A DNA stretch of 64,000 nucleotides from a virus (lineage: Duplodnaviria > Caudoviricetes), in the IMG/VR virus record IMGVR_UViG_3300003962_000026, positions 1-64,000 of that record, one strand, 5' to 3'. A model generated the notes under the pieces. It was given only the letters and a program-made list of their open reading frames with translations. It ran no database searches and was not told the DNA's origin. Position numbers and translations under genes: made by a program. Of the stretch, positions 53,865 through 61,772 are shown one piece after another (the stretch's first letter is position 1; every line of letters starts with the position of its first letter).

Positions 53865-53884
53865 TTATATCTTTATTTAGTCTA

Positions 53885-53916
53885 CAAATATAAAGAAAAG
53901 GAGACTCTTTTACAAA
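53885..53916 (-). promoter_or_regulatory. Bacteroidota consensus promoter upstream of recA
   Basis: TTTG-N20-TATATTTG, exact match to TTTG-N19-21-TAnnTTTG. Confidence 0.7.
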
Positions 53917-53950: not shown

Positions 53951-54700
53951 TTAATCGTTACTAAAGAATCCATCATTTTTAACTACTCCTGTACTTACGT
54001 AGCTTGTAGACCTCACTGACCTGGCTCTTGTTATATTCTTAAATACATTCTGAGTTCCAATATCAGTAGCCATATAATTCATTGAGTTTGAAGCAAATAT
54101 ACCAATACTATCAGCTACAGCTTTAACAGACTTCTCACTACCAGAACCTATATAATTAATAGTCCAGTTATATACAGTTTTCATTTTCTCAATAAGATTC
54201 TTTATATCTTGTTGATTGTAATTTCTTGAGTTATTCTCCTCACCATCTGTAAGTATGGATATAGTAACACTAATATCTTTATTATCTATGTTATCTCCAA
54301 GATATTCTGTCATTTGATGAATACCATGACCAATAGCATCGTATAAAGCTGTCATTCCACCAGGTCTATAATTATAGTCATTTAAAGTACCTACTTCTAC
54401 GCAAGGAGTATTAAGATACGTATCTTTTATAGTTCCATAGCTACTGAATTCAATTAAAGAACAATAAGAGGGAACTTTAGTATCTTCATAAACCTTTTTA
54501 ATACCACCTATAAGCTCATTAAAGCCATTCATAGTAGCTTGTTTAATACTATTCATAGAGCTACTTTTATCTAAGATAAACATATCATAGATAGCCAGGT
54601 TCTTATTTGTTGCCTTCTTTACCTTCTTTTTTACTGTAGTTTTCTTACCTTTTGAAGTAAATCTACCATTCTTATCTCTTACGTTATAATAATTTTCCAT
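53951..54700 (-). CDS. von Willebrand factor A domain protein
   Basis: MIDAS DKSSSM, PGGMTALYDAIG, ILTDGEEN. Confidence 0.85.
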   Translation of the reverse strand: MENYYNVRDKNGRFTSKGKKTTVKKKVKKATNKNLAIYDMFILDKSSSMNSIKQATMNGFNELIGGIKKVYEDTKVPSYCSLIEFSSYGTIKDTYLNTPCVEVGTLNDYNYRPGGMTALYDAIGHGIHQMTEYLGDNIDNKDISVTISILTDGEENNSRNYNQQDIKNLIEKMKTVYNWTINYIGSGSEKSVKAVADSIGIFASNSMNYMATDIGTQNVFKNITRARSVRSTSYVSTGVVKNDGFFSND

Positions 54701-54708
54701 TGTTTTTA

Positions 54709-55149
54709 TTATTTTTTAAGTGTATATTTAATCCCTTTAGATATAACCATATTTAAAGTTCTATGGTCTACTTGTCGCATTGGATGTCCTGAAGTAACTT
54801 TTAAGTCATAAACATTACTTCTACCCATCTTAGGTTCTGAGCCTACTAAATGACCTACTATAGTTCTATCAGCACCATCAGCTTTCACAAAGTCTGCTGT
54901 AAATACAGAATCTCCTACATTTTCAAGTACTTCTACCATTTCTGTACGTGAAACTTTCTTTACTTCATCAAATTGAGAAGCACTCTTCAAACTCTTTTCA
55001 ATCAAATCCTTACCCCGCATAGTAAAATTATTACCAAACTGGTCTTTTACCTGAATTTCTCCAGCTCCCTCATTCTTTCCTGTAACTGTAAGATAATAAG
55101 TCCCACTTAATACTTCCCCTACTGCAATCTTTTTAAATTCTGTTGTCAT
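54709..55149 (-). CDS. Hypothetical protein (146 aa)
   Basis: Downstream of a consensus promoter; F.K.DG..R motif. Confidence 0.6.
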   Translation of the reverse strand: MTTEFKKIAVGEVLSGTYYLTVTGKNEGAGEIQVKDQFGNNFTMRGKDLIEKSLKSASQFDEVKKVSRTEMVEVLENVGDSVFTADFVKADGADRTIVGHLVGSEPKMGRSNVYDLKVTSGHPMRQVDHRTLNMVISKGIKYTLKK

Positions 55150-55172
55150 TTTTTATTGTTTTAATTTGTTTA

Positions 55173-55203
55173 CAAATATAACTAATTAGTCTTTAATTTC
55201 AAA
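55173..55203 (-). promoter_or_regulatory. Bacteroidota consensus promoter
   Basis: TTTG-N19-TATATTTG. Confidence 0.7.
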
Positions 55204-55256
55204 ATAGAATATGCAAGTCTACATTTCTCTTTTGCTACTTTAGAATCATTTTTCCT
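55182..55256 (-). pseudogene. Stranded relic 3' end of the 5'-3' exonuclease gene
   Basis: RKNDSKVAKEKCRLAYSILKLKTN* aligns without gaps to exonuclease QYNGQEVAKDLLKKTYKLLKLHNI. Confidence 0.55.
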
Positions 55257-55814
55257 TTAAAAATTCCAAGCTTTCCCCGTTAGAATTTTCCATATATGTC
55301 TATAGTCTACATTATATAAACTGGCTATCTTTGAACTTTTCATTCCATTCTTACTTAATTGTTTTATTTCTTCCACTTTTATGAAGTCTAACTTCACTCT
55401 ACTAGATGGGTGTTTATTTTTAAATGTATGTCTTGTATTCTCAATTTTTGTACTCCACTCCAAATTCCAGTCATTGTTATTTGTCTTGTTGCCATCAATG
55501 TGATTAACTTCTGGTTTATTCTCAGGGTTTGGAATAAATGCTTGAGCTACTAATCTGTGAACTTTGTAACTATATAATTTACCTTTATTGTTGGTTATAG
55601 TTGTTAATATATAACCATTCACTTTATCAAAACGTAATTTTCTTATTATTTCTTTGGTAATAAACCAAAAATTATGGTAATTATTAAATTTTTTACGAGG
55701 GAGAGCTTTTAATCTACCTTTATTGCTTATTTGATACAAATTTTCATATCCTTCAATATCTTTCCAGATTTCCCCCTCAATATTTTTAAGGCTTACATTT
55801 TTCCAATATTCCAT
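55257..55814 (-). mobile_element. NUMOD4-HNH homing endonuclease
   Basis: EIWKDIEGYE.LYQISNKGR (NUMOD4); HRLVAQAFIPNP...VNHIDGNKTNN...NLEW. Confidence 0.92.
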
Positions 55815-55931
55815 AAAATAAAAAAGGTCTCAAACTCAAGTGTTTATGTAGTTATCCTGCGATAATACCTTGAGAATGAGACCAATAAGTTGTAAATAGT
55901 AAAGAATAACCACATAAACAGTACAAATATA
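55815..55931 (-). promoter_or_regulatory. Promoter plus A-B-A'-B' structured leader of the HNH gene
   Basis: TATATTTG at 55931-55924; A 55919-55906 pairs with A' 55855-55842; B 55883-55869 pairs with B' 55840-55826. Confidence 0.65.
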
Positions 55932-55936
55932 CTAAA

Positions 55937-56740
55937 TTATTTGATATCTAGGTTGTCATAAAAGTCAATTTCTTCTATATTATGTAATTTTAGTAATTTA
56001 TAAGTCTTTTTAAGTAAATCTTTAGCAACTTCTTGTCCATTATATTGGATATACGTTTCATAAATTCTTCTTACAAATTGATAGTTACTCATACCTAAAG
56101 ACACAATTTTAGAAGCTTTCTTTGGCCCTAGACCCTTATTTACTTTAACATTATCGCCAGCGTCCCCTGTAAGAACCTTCAAAGCTAGATGTAAACGACT
56201 TTCATCCTCTGTCATATAAGACCATTCCTGCTTTACGTAGTTATAATGAATTCCGGGAATGCTTTTTAAGTCTTCATCTATACCACATATAATGGCTTCA
56301 AAATTAAGCTTTTTACTTATAGTATAGATTACATCATCTGCTTCTCCTATGGGTGCTTCATAAGCATAATGGTGATTAACTAGATAGTTATGCAGGTGTC
56401 CTACTATAGGTAAAGGTTCTTCTCTATTCTGCTTATATGTCTCCAGAATCTTCTTTCTAAAGTTGTTTTTACCCTTAACACACATGAAAATACCAGATAT
56501 ATCATAGTGCTCCTCTATAGCGTTAAGAATCTTAAATACCCATTCAGTTACTATACCCTCAGCTATTCCATACTCAGTTTCTGTATATTCAGGTTTCTTA
56601 TTACCTTCTTCATCCTTACCTGTATAAGCACAAATGAAGGAAAGGCTATCTGCGTCAATAATAACAACCTTTCCCTCTTTTTGCTCTTTATTCTGAGGAG
56701 GATTAAAGCTACTTCTCTTATAATCTGACCTACTTGCCAT
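55937..56740 (-). CDS. 5'-3' exonuclease / RNase H (FEN/T7 gp6-like)
   Basis: IIDADSL, KGKNNFRK...YKQNR, EADD, DEDL, GDAGDN, GLGPKKA. Confidence 0.88.
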   Translation of the reverse strand: MASRSDYKRSSFNPPQNKEQKEGKVVIIDADSLSFICAYTGKDEEGNKKPEYTETEYGIAEGIVTEWVFKILNAIEEHYDISGIFMCVKGKNNFRKKILETYKQNREEPLPIVGHLHNYLVNHHYAYEAPIGEADDVIYTISKKLNFEAIICGIDEDLKSIPGIHYNYVKQEWSYMTEDESRLHLALKVLTGDAGDNVKVNKGLGPKKASKIVSLGMSNYQFVRRIYETYIQYNGQEVAKDLLKKTYKLLKLHNIEEIDFYDNLDIK

Positions 56741-58013: not shown

Positions 58014-58591
58014 ATTGCTAAATATTGTTCTAAACTTCTTGTTTTGAAATTAAACTTTCTATCCTTTCCTTTACTAGTTTTGAGTAAGGTTTTTGGCATA
58101 AAAGTCTTTGAAAATAAGTCATCATTCTTAACTACCTGACAAAATATCCCATACTTTGCCCAAAGCCATTTAATATTTAAAGTTGCTAACCTTGTCATAT
58201 TGTTAAAGTCAAATGAAGGTTTTGATTCTATATAGCTGATTCCCAATTCATTACAGATAAAATAGTTATTCCACTTATATCCAAATTGGGTACAGAATTT
58301 TTTAACCCCTTTATCCTCCCAATGAATTTCAAAGTCCAAATTAAAACTGTGCCCGTGTAATATAGTCTCTGTTTTTGGTCTACTTTTAGTTTTGAGTTGT
58401 TCTACATAATTATTAACCAAACTATCACTTAATAAGTAGCTTTGACCTCTTTTGAATTCTTTTATAAACCCATTATCTTTCAATTCCTGCCAATAATGGC
58501 ACATATAAATTTCTCCGGGTGAATCGCAAGGTATCTGGTTAAAATATACAGGCTCCCTAGTTTTTGGTTTATTCTTTTTTTTTGATTTCAT
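58010..58591 (-). CDS. PD-(D/E)XK nuclease (possible resolvase)
   Basis: SFNLDFEI...YIESKP catalytic pattern; DSPGE helix. Confidence 0.6.
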   Translation of the reverse strand: MKSKKKNKPKTREPVYFNQIPCDSPGEIYMCHYWQELKDNGFIKEFKRGQSYLLSDSLVNNYVEQLKTKSRPKTETILHGHSFNLDFEIHWEDKGVKKFCTQFGYKWNNYFICNELGISYIESKPSFDFNNMTRLATLNIKWLWAKYGIFCQVVKNDDLFSKTFMPKTLLKTSKGKDRKFNFKTRSLEQYLAI

Positions 58592-58592
58592 C

Positions 58593-59327
58593 TTATTTTC
58601 TTTTTAATTCCCATCTGAACCCACCAGCAACTCTAAAGGGGTATTTTGGATTATAGCTATTTTGTATTTTTTTAAGGTCTATGTTTAATTCATCGCTGGC
58701 TAATCTGGCAGATTCCCATTCTTTTATAAAATTTCCGTCTAAATCTTTTTGAATCACTTTATTAGAATTTGATAATGATACTTTTTTATTATGTTCTTCA
58801 GATTTAGGTTTACCTTTAAGAGGACTGGGTAAATTTTTTCTTTTAGATGGTTTTCTTGGAAAAGTTAATTTTACACTATCTGATATTTTCTTTCTTGTTT
58901 CATCTGAATGAATTTTACCAGTCATTGGATTTATATACCCTTCTTGATATTTTCTTTTTTGTACTTCTTTTTGAAGATTTATGGTTTCTTGTGACATACC
59001 AGGATTAAGATATGGGCCTGTAGGTGCTATATTATACCCATATTCCCTATTATGTGTATTTAGCATATTCGCCCACCAATTTTCCATTGATGGTAAAAAC
59101 TCTCTTTCATATTCTTCTAATATTTCAAATTCAAAATTTTTGTCACCATACTTATTAAAAGAGTTTTGAAGATATTTATTACTGTGCGAATTATTTAATA
59201 GTTGTCTTCTATGCTCATACATTCTACTAATTGCATTTGCTGAATAACCTACTATTGCCTTTTTATCTATAGCATTACTTATAATATAGATTGCTGAAAC
59301 ATCATTTTTAAGTCTTCTTCTACCCAT
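58593..59327 (-). mobile_element. GIY-YIG homing endonuclease with NUMOD3/NUMOD1 tails
   Basis: AIY..SN...IVGYS...R..EH...H.N..LQ.SFNKYG..NFEFEILE, E, GYN; HSDETRKKIS and VIQKDLDGNFIKEWES. Confidence 0.88.
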
Positions 59328-59470
59328 AATAAATACAAAAGCCTCAAATTCAGGTGCTTACGTCATCTACTCTTGATAGATAACCCTGAAAATGAGGCTT
59401 TAAAAAGTTTGTTAATATTGTAGATGACATAAGCATTACAATTATACGTAAACTTTTTCACATTTCCAAA
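59328..59470 (-). promoter_or_regulatory. Promoter plus A-B-A'-B' structured leader of the GIY-YIG gene
   Basis: TTTG-N20-TATAATTG; A 59434-59420 pairs with A' 59370-59356; B 59401-59385 pairs with B' 59354-59338. Confidence 0.7.
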
Positions 59471-59556
59471 TTCGTAAGTTTGAACTTATCACAAGGAATT
59501 CCGTTAAAATATACTGGTTCTCTTACTTTAGGTTTATTTCTATCCTTTTTACTCAT
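59458..59556 (-). pseudogene. Stranded relic 5' end of the PD-(D/E)XK nuclease gene
   Basis: MSKKDRNKPKVREPVYFNGIPCD(KFKLTNLEM*) vs MKSKKKNKPKTREPVYFNQIPCD at 58591. Confidence 0.85.
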
Positions 59557-59967: not shown

Positions 59968-60441
59968 TTATGTTGGATTTTGTATTTCATGTTCTTTTTC
60001 TTTCATAAATTGTTTAAATCTATTCCAGGTTTCCAAATTTTTTTTATTTTTAACAAATGATTTAGTAAATCTCATCCTCTGCCTAGCAGGTATTCTCCAA
60101 TTCTTATCCCCTGTATAGGCTATTAGGTATGTAGTTATAGTTTTTCCGGTCTCTACCCCTATTTTATAGAATAGATTCTTAGCTAAAACATAACTATGTT
60201 TTCTGTTACTATGTTGTCCTTTTACATCTAATCCTGTAAATTCTTCTACAAGAGCAGCTATTTCTTTAACTTTGGCTTCATTTTGTTCTAAATTACACAG
60301 GCTTCTCTTTAAATCGTAGATTTTTACTGATAGTTTTCCTGTTTTTTTACCTTTTTGTTTTCCTTCTATCCTTCTTTTAGTATAATTAGCTATTCTTTGC
60401 TGAAGAGAATTCTTATTGCGACTATCCCACTTTCTTATCAT
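59968..60441 (-). CDS. Hypothetical basic protein (157 aa)
   Basis: Lys-rich ORF downstream of terminator. Confidence 0.55.
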   Translation of the reverse strand: MIRKWDSRNKNSLQQRIANYTKRRIEGKQKGKKTGKLSVKIYDLKRSLCNLEQNEAKVKEIAALVEEFTGLDVKGQHSNRKHSYVLAKNLFYKIGVETGKTITTYLIAYTGDKNWRIPARQRMRFTKSFVKNKKNLETWNRFKQFMKEKEHEIQNPT

Positions 60442-60454
60442 AATAAATAATAAA

Positions 60455-60491
60455 AAGCTACCTGCAAAGGTATATACTCTACAGGTAGCTT
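60455..60491 (-). terminator. Intrinsic terminator after rIIB
   Basis: AAGCTACCTG / CAGGTAGCTT stem followed on the minus strand by TTTATT. Confidence 0.65.
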
Positions 60492-60506
60492 GTTTGTTTA
60501 AAATTG

Positions 60507-61772
60507 TTAAATGTTTACTACTCTTTTTCTTAGTTTATCTGTAATATTCTCTACTTCTTTGATAGTTAAATCACTTGTAGCTTCGGATATACTAACAGTA
60601 GCAAGACTTTTAGCTTTTAGAGATTCTTCAAGTTCTTCTATACTACTATTGTGATAACTTTCATCAAAATCATGAATAAAACAGTCTGATACATGACTCC
60701 CCTCATTTTCATGTATACCTACTATAAACATTTCACTTACCCTCATTTTACCCATATCATTTTCAGGTACAGTGATTGTCTTACTAGGATTTACAAGAAC
60801 TACTAAAGGTGTATCCCCATAACTACTATAATTGTAATTTACAGCAGCAGCGTGTATACCACCAGCATGACAGACATCAGCTCTCAAATCTACCTTCTCT
60901 TCTGGAATACTGTATATCTCCCCTATCTTAATTCTAATACTTTTATCATGACTAGAAGTATATATATTCTCTTCCATATCAGGGATTTTCTTGTAGAGGT
61001 CATCTAAATTACCTAAATAAGAGTTATTATTTCCACGTATGTCTATATGTTCAATAGAATATCCATTATCATTAAAAACCCGGTAATTTTTAGGACTTTT
61101 CTTCCAACTCTTAACTTTTAACCAGTTTTTACTAACAAATTCTATTAGTTCCTGATTCTCGTTTAAAGATACACATCTACGATAGAGAACTAAATTACCT
61201 AAAGAAGTTATTCTTACATCGTTCTTTTTAACAAACTTAAGTAACTGTTCCCTACTTTGTTCCAGAGGATTTAACATTAATTTCAAAGCAAACATTTTTA
61301 AAGACTTAAATTCATTATCAGAATTCCAATTCCATTCCTTAGATAAAATCTCCAGAAAAGCCCCTACAATAATATTAGGAATAGCTATATTCTTAATTCC
61401 AGTAAAGTATAGCCTATCACCTACTACTTCAAAATCTGATAAATTTTCAAATAATCCAAGATATCCAGGAACAATCTTATCTTCTTCATAAGATATTGTT
61501 TCTTTTATAGGTTCTATAGGTTTTAAGAGCTTAATAATCAAATCTCTGTCACTAGCTACCTTAATTCTTTCTGCAATGTCTGGCTCTACATTACCAGAAA
61601 GTATTTCATCATCTTTAAGAATAATTGTGATACTTTTAGTCCCTGGATTATAAATCATCTTTTGGATAATCTTATCATCCTTTAATCTATCTTCTAACTC
61701 TTTATTTTTCTTTTCTAATTCTTCTACTTTACCCCAGTTCAGAGCATTGAGTATTTTTCCAAATATTTTCAT
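60507..61772 (-). CDS. rIIB: rIIB-like protein
   Basis: F..KL.LNP...L..F...IT..G..V.YR, C..GGIH, VLVNP...VP..D.GKMRV; adjacent to rIIA. Confidence 0.75.
   Translation of the reverse strand: MKIFGKILNALNWGKVEELEKKNKELEDRLKDDKIIQKMIYNPGTKSITIILKDDEILSGNVEPDIAERIKVASDRDLIIKLLKPIEPIKETISYEEDKIVPGYLGLFENLSDFEVVGDRLYFTGIKNIAIPNIIVGAFLEILSKEWNWNSDNEFKSLKMFALKLMLNPLEQSREQLLKFVKKNDVRITSLGNLVLYRRCVSLNENQELIEFVSKNWLKVKSWKKSPKNYRVFNDNGYSIEHIDIRGNNNSYLGNLDDLYKKIPDMEENIYTSSHDKSIRIKIGEIYSIPEEKVDLRADVCHAGGIHAAAVNYNYSSYGDTPLVVLVNPSKTITVPENDMGKMRVSEMFIVGIHENEGSHVSDCFIHDFDESYHNSSIEELEESLKAKSLATVSISEATSDLTIKEVENITDKLRKRVVNI

Follow-up and report, generated by a model that had tools for sequence, protein, structure and literature searches.

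Directly behind the stop codon of an HNH endonuclease gene in this uncultured phage lie the last 24 codons of a 5'-3' exonuclease gene, while the complete exonuclease gene of the locus stands on the other side of the endonuclease gene. In our judgment there is about an even chance that the locus is the fossil of one-sided homing by this free-standing HNH endonuclease. Phage genomes are shaped to a large extent by free-standing homing endonucleases, but the earlier moves of these genes can seldom be read from the sequence. The readable trace here consists of a stranded gene end, a breakpoint at a domain boundary in the host gene, and a leader common to other nuclease genes. The window (the whole 64,000-nucleotide stretch that was analysed, part of a 75.9-kb uncultured virus record) carries, in minus-strand order, the exonuclease, a TATATTTGTA box, the leader, the HNH gene, the exonuclease relic, a second TATATTTGTA box, a gene for a 146-amino-acid protein, a VWA-like gene and recA. 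Every gene of the region is on the minus strand.

The inserted endonuclease gene and its leader

The gene downstream of the relic (54709..55149, minus strand; 146 amino acids, no Pfam family) served as the anchor in the search for nuclease-free alleles. Its protein is 83% identical to that of locus L007, 69% to that of L008, and 66% to that of L009, and in all three loci the exonuclease stop is followed by a promoter box and then by the same downstream gene within 39 to 57 nt. In the window, 787 nt including the HNH gene lie between the two genes. A blastn comparison of the window with L007 aligned 56167-55974 (69.6% identity) and 55180-53959 (72.3%) and nothing between them, so that homology to this nuclease-free locus ends at 55974 and begins again precisely where the second box does, at 55180. 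Because the exonuclease directly precedes the downstream gene in the three nuclease-free loci, the HNH gene is, by this comparison, an insertion relative to its nuclease-free relatives. No HNH gene was found after the exonuclease in any of 93 related exonuclease loci. A blastn search of a phage collection of 50,697 records returned no relative of the locus and only generic HNH-core matches, and related-locus scans using a single exonuclease protein gave no match. Scans of metagenome and viral collections with an alignment of the downstream gene gave no closer relative than L007, and none of the searches found a donor-like genome for the cassette. The fractions of identical codons across the insert (0.58 to 0.64, versus 0.41 to 0.61 in distant pairs) indicate saturated synonymous sites, and the relative ages of the two sides are therefore not readable.

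The 146-amino-acid gene and the VWA-like gene that follows it (about 250 amino acids; window 53951-55149, minus strand, for both) occur together as a conserved pair in many uncultured phages. Neither can be assigned clearly to a Pfam family, the only signal being a weak VWA match, and the upstream neighbour of the pair varies in L007, L009, L011, L012, and L014. Other endonuclease genes occur around the same exonuclease-recA block in further relatives (L003 to L006, 3536-3991 and 1177-2199; L002, 2418-2843). These relatives have a small HNH-like gene immediately 5' of the exonuclease, a LAGLIDADG gene adjoining an rIIB-like gene, and a SegE-type GIY-YIG gene.

The HNH gene (55257..55814, minus strand) is intact and encodes a free-standing endonuclease of 185 amino acids with NUMOD4 and HNH_3 domains (Pfam, 46.1 and 36.4 bits, both above the cutoff; the HNH_3 profile was covered from position 1 to 46 of 46). 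The protein ends like the enzyme of the relative L009, which indicates that the open reading frame is complete and that the relic begins right after its stop. We had considered that the last HNH codons came from exonuclease sequence, with which they share K-A-W codons, and dropped this idea, as the L009 enzyme ends likewise. In the search for a close relative or donor of the HNH gene, the best full-length match was about 45% identical.

A leader of 107 nt (55815..55921, minus strand) precedes the HNH gene. It is predicted to fold into a two-tier hairpin (about 55826-55883), which is followed by a U-rich spacer and the ATG; the fold has an energy of -27.5 kcal/mol and a z score of -4.0. A simple terminator scan does not flag this hairpin, as the loop limit of the scan is too small. 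The leader of a GIY-YIG gene (59328-59457) is homologous to the HNH leader in sequence and in fold (z score of -5.4), and a covariance model of the leader picked out only these two leaders in the window. In a set of 95 loci, the model found L141, which was part of the training set, and L009, which was not (64.5 bits). The L009 match lies directly 5' of that phage's own NUMOD4-HNH gene, whose product is 33% identical to the window HNH protein. In L141, an exonuclease end of the type that we call Y (P0019; see below) is followed by the same hairpin-leader architecture and then by a new open reading frame cut by the contig end; a degenerate pattern scan to extend this frame gave no match. These comparisons of sequence and predicted fold show that the leader belongs to a mobile cassette common to other endonuclease genes. 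The HNH gene has its own expression signals, is sporadic among the relatives, and has a leader common to two other endonuclease genes.

In this leader family, a promoter box is followed by a two-tier hairpin that has a 2x2 internal loop, and a U-rich spacer then leads to the ATG. The leader stands 5' of four different endonuclease-type open reading frames in three phages (window 55815-55936 and 59328-59457, minus strand; L009 5068-5199; L141 1026-1147). A weak third match in the window (60439-60539, minus strand; 20.3 bits, E value of 0.66) lies directly upstream of an adjoining 157-amino-acid open reading frame of no known family (60441..59968). The GIY-YIG gene, which also has a NUMOD3 domain (59327..58593, minus strand), is 3 kb away from the HNH gene and is preceded by a 32-codon open reading frame (59556..59458). 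The first 23 codons of this short frame duplicate the start of a 193-amino-acid gene that begins at 58591, 2 nt past the GIY-YIG stop, and this arrangement mirrors that of the HNH case. For a 172-amino-acid open reading frame after the L140 exonuclease, the profile did not confirm a seeming resemblance to the downstream gene.

The exonuclease end behind the endonuclease gene

The HNH stop is at 55259-55257, and the same frame stays open for 24 codons and ends with a TAG at 55184-55182. The preliminary description had aligned these codons without gaps to the tail of the exonuclease, with 7 of 15 core positions identical, and this alignment is confirmed: compared with the current tail (56047-55976), 8 of the 24 residues are identical, including 7 of 15 in the core. 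We scored every stop-to-stop peptide in all six frames with a 44-position C-terminus profile made from 21 relatives, the window's own exonuclease being left out. The relic obtained 20.0 bits (E value of 4.6e-5) and was aligned to the correct profile positions. It ranked first after the real gene among the 2248 six-frame peptides of the window, the next peptide having 8.2 bits. In a null set of 25,214 six-frame peptides from 138 related loci, no stray peptide scored above 10.5 bits, and the sole exception was a true exonuclease end cut at a contig edge. Moreover, all four tail positions that are invariant or nearly so in the family (A239, L249, K251, and L252; alignment A1) are retained. The profile scores thus confirm that the relic (55182..55256, minus strand) is a genuine 5'-3' exonuclease C-terminus, consisting of the last 24 codons and the stop of a non-Y exonuclease gene and having no start codon of its own.

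The relic looks like the tail of another lineage. Its DNA is only 54% identical to that of the current tail (31 of 57 bases), which makes the two tails old relatives rather than a recent duplicate, and a local DNA alignment of the two was not significant (24 versus a shuffle mean of 21.9). Scored against profiles of the tail types, the relic reached 24.5 bits with S-type, 17.8 with W-type, and 11.8 with Y-type tails; the current tail reached 44 bits with Y-type, 10.5 with W-type, and 6.4 with S-type tails. The best W tail is 46% identical to the relic. A search for its exact parent gave none; the best tails are only 60 to 65% identical in DNA, which suggests that the parent is unsampled. According to the preliminary description, nuclease-free relatives should end like the relic. 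This did not hold for L007, which is only 72% identical to the window in DNA and therefore a weak allele for comparison: its exonuclease matches the current tail at 18 of 28 positions and the relic at 6 of 24. The same description had coupled an ending of the current type with a chance match of the relic; L007 does have such an ending, and the chance match is excluded by the profile. The more distant allele, L008, has a non-Y tail, with which the relic shares 10 identical residues and the current tail 9.

Promoter elements surround both tails. Box A, TATATTTGTA (55922..55931, minus strand), lies 5 nt past the exonuclease stop and fits the Bacteroidota -7 consensus TAnnTTTG; no -33 TTTG was found at the proper distance from it. 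The putative promoter B of the downstream gene (55171..55203, minus strand) has a -33 TTTG at 55203-55200, a 19-nt spacer, and a -7 box at 55180-55173, which extends to 55171 as the second TATATTTGTA box (55180..55171). There are three exact copies of TATATTTGTA in the 64 kb (53883-53892, 55171-55180, and 55922-55931, minus strand), all within 2 kb, on the coding strand, and each before a gene. One-mismatch variants elsewhere in the window occur at chance frequency (28 versus 22.5 expected). The full pattern of TTTG, 18 to 21 nt and TAnnTTTG occurs four times in the window, including promoter B and the recA promoter. The relic's codons for the conserved I-L-K-L motif contain the -33 TTTG of promoter B, and in the nuclease-free L009 the -33 element is likewise inside the exonuclease 3' end. 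Deletion of the stub would therefore be expected to remove the promoter. The insert is flanked by near-identical 19-nt repeats (55922-55940 and 55171-55189) that comprise the stop, TTAG and the 10-nt box.

Mosaic structure of the exonuclease

The exonuclease gene itself (55937..56740, minus strand) encodes an intact FEN-like protein of 267 amino acids, as judged from Pfam, its homologues and an AlphaFold model. The match to PF02739 is above the cutoff (39.6 bits), and that to PF01367, the H3TH family, is below it (22.3 bits). We collected about 21 to 22 homologues, 36 to 55% identical, and the gene aligns over its full length with 21 of them. The catalytic Asp columns are invariant among the homologues, and the invariant residues are D29, D31, E133, D135, D136, D155, D157, D193, and D196. 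The model has a mean pLDDT of 90.3, with tail helices at residues 236-250 (pLDDT of about 96) and 255-262. The part of the current tail that is homologous to the relic (55976..56047, minus strand; by alignment, model and profiles) corresponds to the first of these helices. As the displaced segment is a confidently modelled helix, a truncated gene would probably fail. The host gene was, as the preliminary description had stated, kept intact beside the cassette: the exonuclease has its full length and is followed by the promoter box, the leader, the intact HNH gene, and the displaced tail.

Two segments of this protein differ in their relationships. Residues 101-170 (56231..56440, minus strand) form a body segment that resembles the W clade (P0006 to P0017), and residues 171-267 (55937..56230, minus strand) form a Y-type H3TH C-terminal module, which is the candidate donor tract. 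In a sliding comparison, identity over residues 101 to about 170 or 180 is 0.54 to 0.69 to W versus 0.40 to 0.48 to Y proteins, and from residue 171 onward it is 0.50 to 0.66 to Y versus 0.18 to 0.35 to W proteins. The W-like stretch is absent from the other Y proteins. In a tree of residues 101-170, the window exonuclease groups with W, with a support of only 80/48, and monophyly of Y is rejected (p-AU of 0.00014, or 0.004 with the three closest proteins). In a tree of residues 171-255, the Y clade has a support of 89/80, and a placement of the window protein with W is rejected (p-AU of 0.004). Both trees rest on short segments (70 and 85 columns), and the Y and W groups were named after the alignments had been inspected. 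A tree of the whole body gave a polytomy around the window exonuclease, and only the segment trees were informative. By the conflict between the trees, the left breakpoint falls at about residue 170 (roughly nt 56215-56245), where the nuclease domain meets the H3TH domain; the Y module starts at this boundary in the model, with a strand at residues 172-176 and a helix at 178-191. Identity, trees and model together show that the exonuclease is a mosaic with its breakpoint at a domain boundary. The insertion proposed in the preliminary description is real, and the size of about 790 bp given there is probably too short, since the phylogenetic incongruence points to a donor tract of probably about 975 bp.

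The Y-type module occurs on at least three body lineages. In P0007, the body groups with non-Y proteins (99/99) and the C-terminal module with Y proteins (96/89), and the similarity of the P0019 tail to other Y tails exceeds what the body of P0019 would predict by 2.4 to 3.8 standard deviations. These two cases, together with the conflict between the segments and the position of the breakpoint at a domain boundary, indicate that the Y-type C-terminal domain has passed from one exonuclease lineage to another. In the window, this domain ends in an endonuclease cassette, behind which the non-Y stub lies.

Origin of the locus and comparison with known systems

We favour one-sided homing because a single homing event can account at once for the mosaic, for the insertion and for the stub. 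The donor phage would have had the promoter box, the hairpin leader and the HNH gene just 3' of an exonuclease with a Y-type H3TH domain. Upon co-infection, a recipient exonuclease with a non-Y C-terminal domain would have been cut about 24 codons before its stop, the likely site being the W-K-N/G-D codons. The upstream broken end would have been repaired from the donor by homologous recombination, with the crossover probably in the conserved stretch coding for IPGIHYNY (residues 165-170), and the whole of the donor's C-terminal domain would have been copied in the repair, together with the stop, the promoter box, the leader and the HNH gene. The downstream broken end, with no homology past the HNH gene, would have been joined illegitimately right after the HNH stop. 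The exonuclease would have stayed intact, with an end that is presumably resistant to cleavage, and the last 24 codons of the recipient would have been left stranded. This stub would have been retained because it holds the -33 element and the spacer of the next gene's promoter. In this scheme, the place of the cut, the nature of the donor, the sequence of the steps and the resistance of a Y-type end to cleavage are all inferred. The finding that the relic is non-Y while the current tail of the mosaic exonuclease is strongly Y counts for homing, as do the lack of the insert in L007, L008, and L009, the occurrence of the Y-type module on several bodies, the return of the leader behind a Y-type end in L141, the mobility of the leader, the -33 element inside the relic, and the fungal parallel described below. 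Several points count against it: L007, the closest nuclease-free allele, has a Y-type long tail before the downstream gene, the relic scores higher with the distant S tails than with the W clade that the upstream body resembles, the tree segments are short and their groups were named after inspection, the W placement has low support, and neither a close HNH relative nor a donor-like genome turned up in the searches.

Alternatively, and in our opinion somewhat improbably, the relic may be a passenger. In that case the whole present exonuclease with its Y-type end would be native, and the mosaic would result from earlier unrelated recombination. A unit of leader, HNH gene, foreign exonuclease tail and stop would have been acquired afterwards from a different phage, with short promoter boxes as the recombining sequences. 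The relic would have been made in the cassette's earlier host by the replacement mechanism and would travel as the downstream flank of the cassette. The Y-type long tail directly before the promoter box in L007, which is the closest relative on the downstream side (83%), and the near-identical 19-nt repeats around the insert fit this explanation better than they fit homing. Also in its favour are the resemblance to the intergenic region of L007 that appears when the stretches to the left of box A and to the right of box B are taken together, the similar nucleotide identity to L007 before and after the insert (69.6% and 72.3%), and the best fit of the relic to the distant S tail group. However, it requires two extra events, namely an earlier formation of the mosaic and an earlier replacement in an unsampled donor with the same architecture, and crossovers within 10 to 19 nt of homology. 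It also leaves unexplained why the Y-type module is found on unrelated bodies and why the nuclease leader appears again in L141. Furthermore, the succession of relic, stop, box and downstream gene has the look of a natural gene end without interruption, like the one in L009.

It is very unlikely that the exonuclease 3' end and promoter were duplicated in tandem in situ, with the HNH gene inserted between the copies and the unused copy decaying. The same stop-TTAG-box arrangement follows both copies, and the relic, downstream of the HNH stop, has no start codon, as a duplication would have it. However, the copies share only 54% of their bases, and after the LKL motif there are 3 residues in the relic and 15 in the current tail. 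The departures of the relic match other family members (the AKEK and R-L-x-Y positions) and all invariant positions are kept, which is the pattern of two lineages under selection and not of a decaying copy. That an AT-rich, lysine-rich intergenic frame resembles an exonuclease tail by chance is scarcely credible: the stretch is only 24 codons of low complexity and its DNA-level alignment is not significant, but the profile match (E value of 4.6e-5 against the six-frame peptides of the window) is at the correct positions and has no counterpart among the 25,214 control peptides, and the stop at the family-typical distance is followed by the family-typical promoter arrangement.

Under either of the two leading explanations, homing in place or a passenger relic, the stub shows that a cassette of this kind once entered an exonuclease 3' end and that a replacement end was needed. 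The earlier interpretation, that the HNH cassette supplied a new 3' end to the exonuclease it invaded, is only partly supported. By the comparison with L007, which corresponds to the standard test in mitochondrial hybrids, the current tail looks native. If one-sided homing did take place, a whole domain can be exchanged by phage homing among genes that are only distantly related, the two broken ends can be repaired in different ways, one homologously and the other illegitimately, and a dead gene fragment that also serves as a promoter can be kept for that reason. The window HNH enzyme and non-Y exonuclease 3' ends can be named as a candidate enzyme-target pair. A further and more doubtful idea is that the Y-type H3TH domain is a cleavage-resistant allele that has been driven through unrelated phage exonucleases by cassettes that share the leader, with stubs being kept only where they overlap a promoter. 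If this were true, it would amount to a domain-sized gene drive, and the GIY-YIG case 3 kb away would be a second self-repairing cassette under one regulatory module.

In T-even phages, free-standing seg and mob endonucleases, such as SegF, SegG, and MobE, carry out intronless homing. This normally involves homology on both sides and leaves no stub. The window resembles these systems in having a free-standing nuclease gene between conserved genes, in the presumed cleavage within the neighbouring gene of nuclease-free phages with co-conversion of the flanks, and, by analogy, in an expression that may be restrained by RNA structure before the start codon. It differs in that the far side is proposed to have been joined without homology, with a relic left behind, and in its promoters, which are of the Bacteroidota consensus and not of the T4 middle or late type. 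The domain pair of the window HNH protein is that of the I-HmuI-like NUMOD4-HNH_3 enzymes of Bacillus, Lactococcus, and Enterococcus phages. Its core has 70 to 80% DNA similarity to many annotated phage HNH genes, but over the full length its best relative is only that about 45% identical protein. No description of this architecture in phages was found in the literature searched.

The closest likeness in architecture is to the mORF 'gene hybrids' of fungal mitochondria, which have been described for atp6, atp9, cox2, and nad3 of Glomus sp. (Beaudet et al. 2013, PMC3630166) and for atp6 of Allomyces macrogynus (Paquin et al. 1994, as cited in PMC3630166). In the hybrids and in the window the order is the same, with a gene core, a foreign in-frame C-terminus, an endonuclease open reading frame and the displaced C-terminus, and the two C-termini are strongly diverged in DNA and conserved in protein (PMC3630166). 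The window has the 3' insertion, the complete upstream C-terminus, the displaced downstream copy, and the incongruent inserted C-terminus of such hybrids, and by this analogy it has the architecture that results when a replacement gene end is supplied by an endonuclease cassette. There are several differences from the hybrids. The host is a phage and not an organelle, and the HNH gene has its own promoter box and hairpin leader instead of being fused in frame. The replaced tract is apparently a whole protein domain (about 97 codons), the downstream copy does not match the nuclease-free relative (L007), and part of the next gene's promoter overlaps with the relic. If the one-sided homing that we favour is the correct explanation, a mechanism documented mainly in fungal mitochondria would extend to phages.
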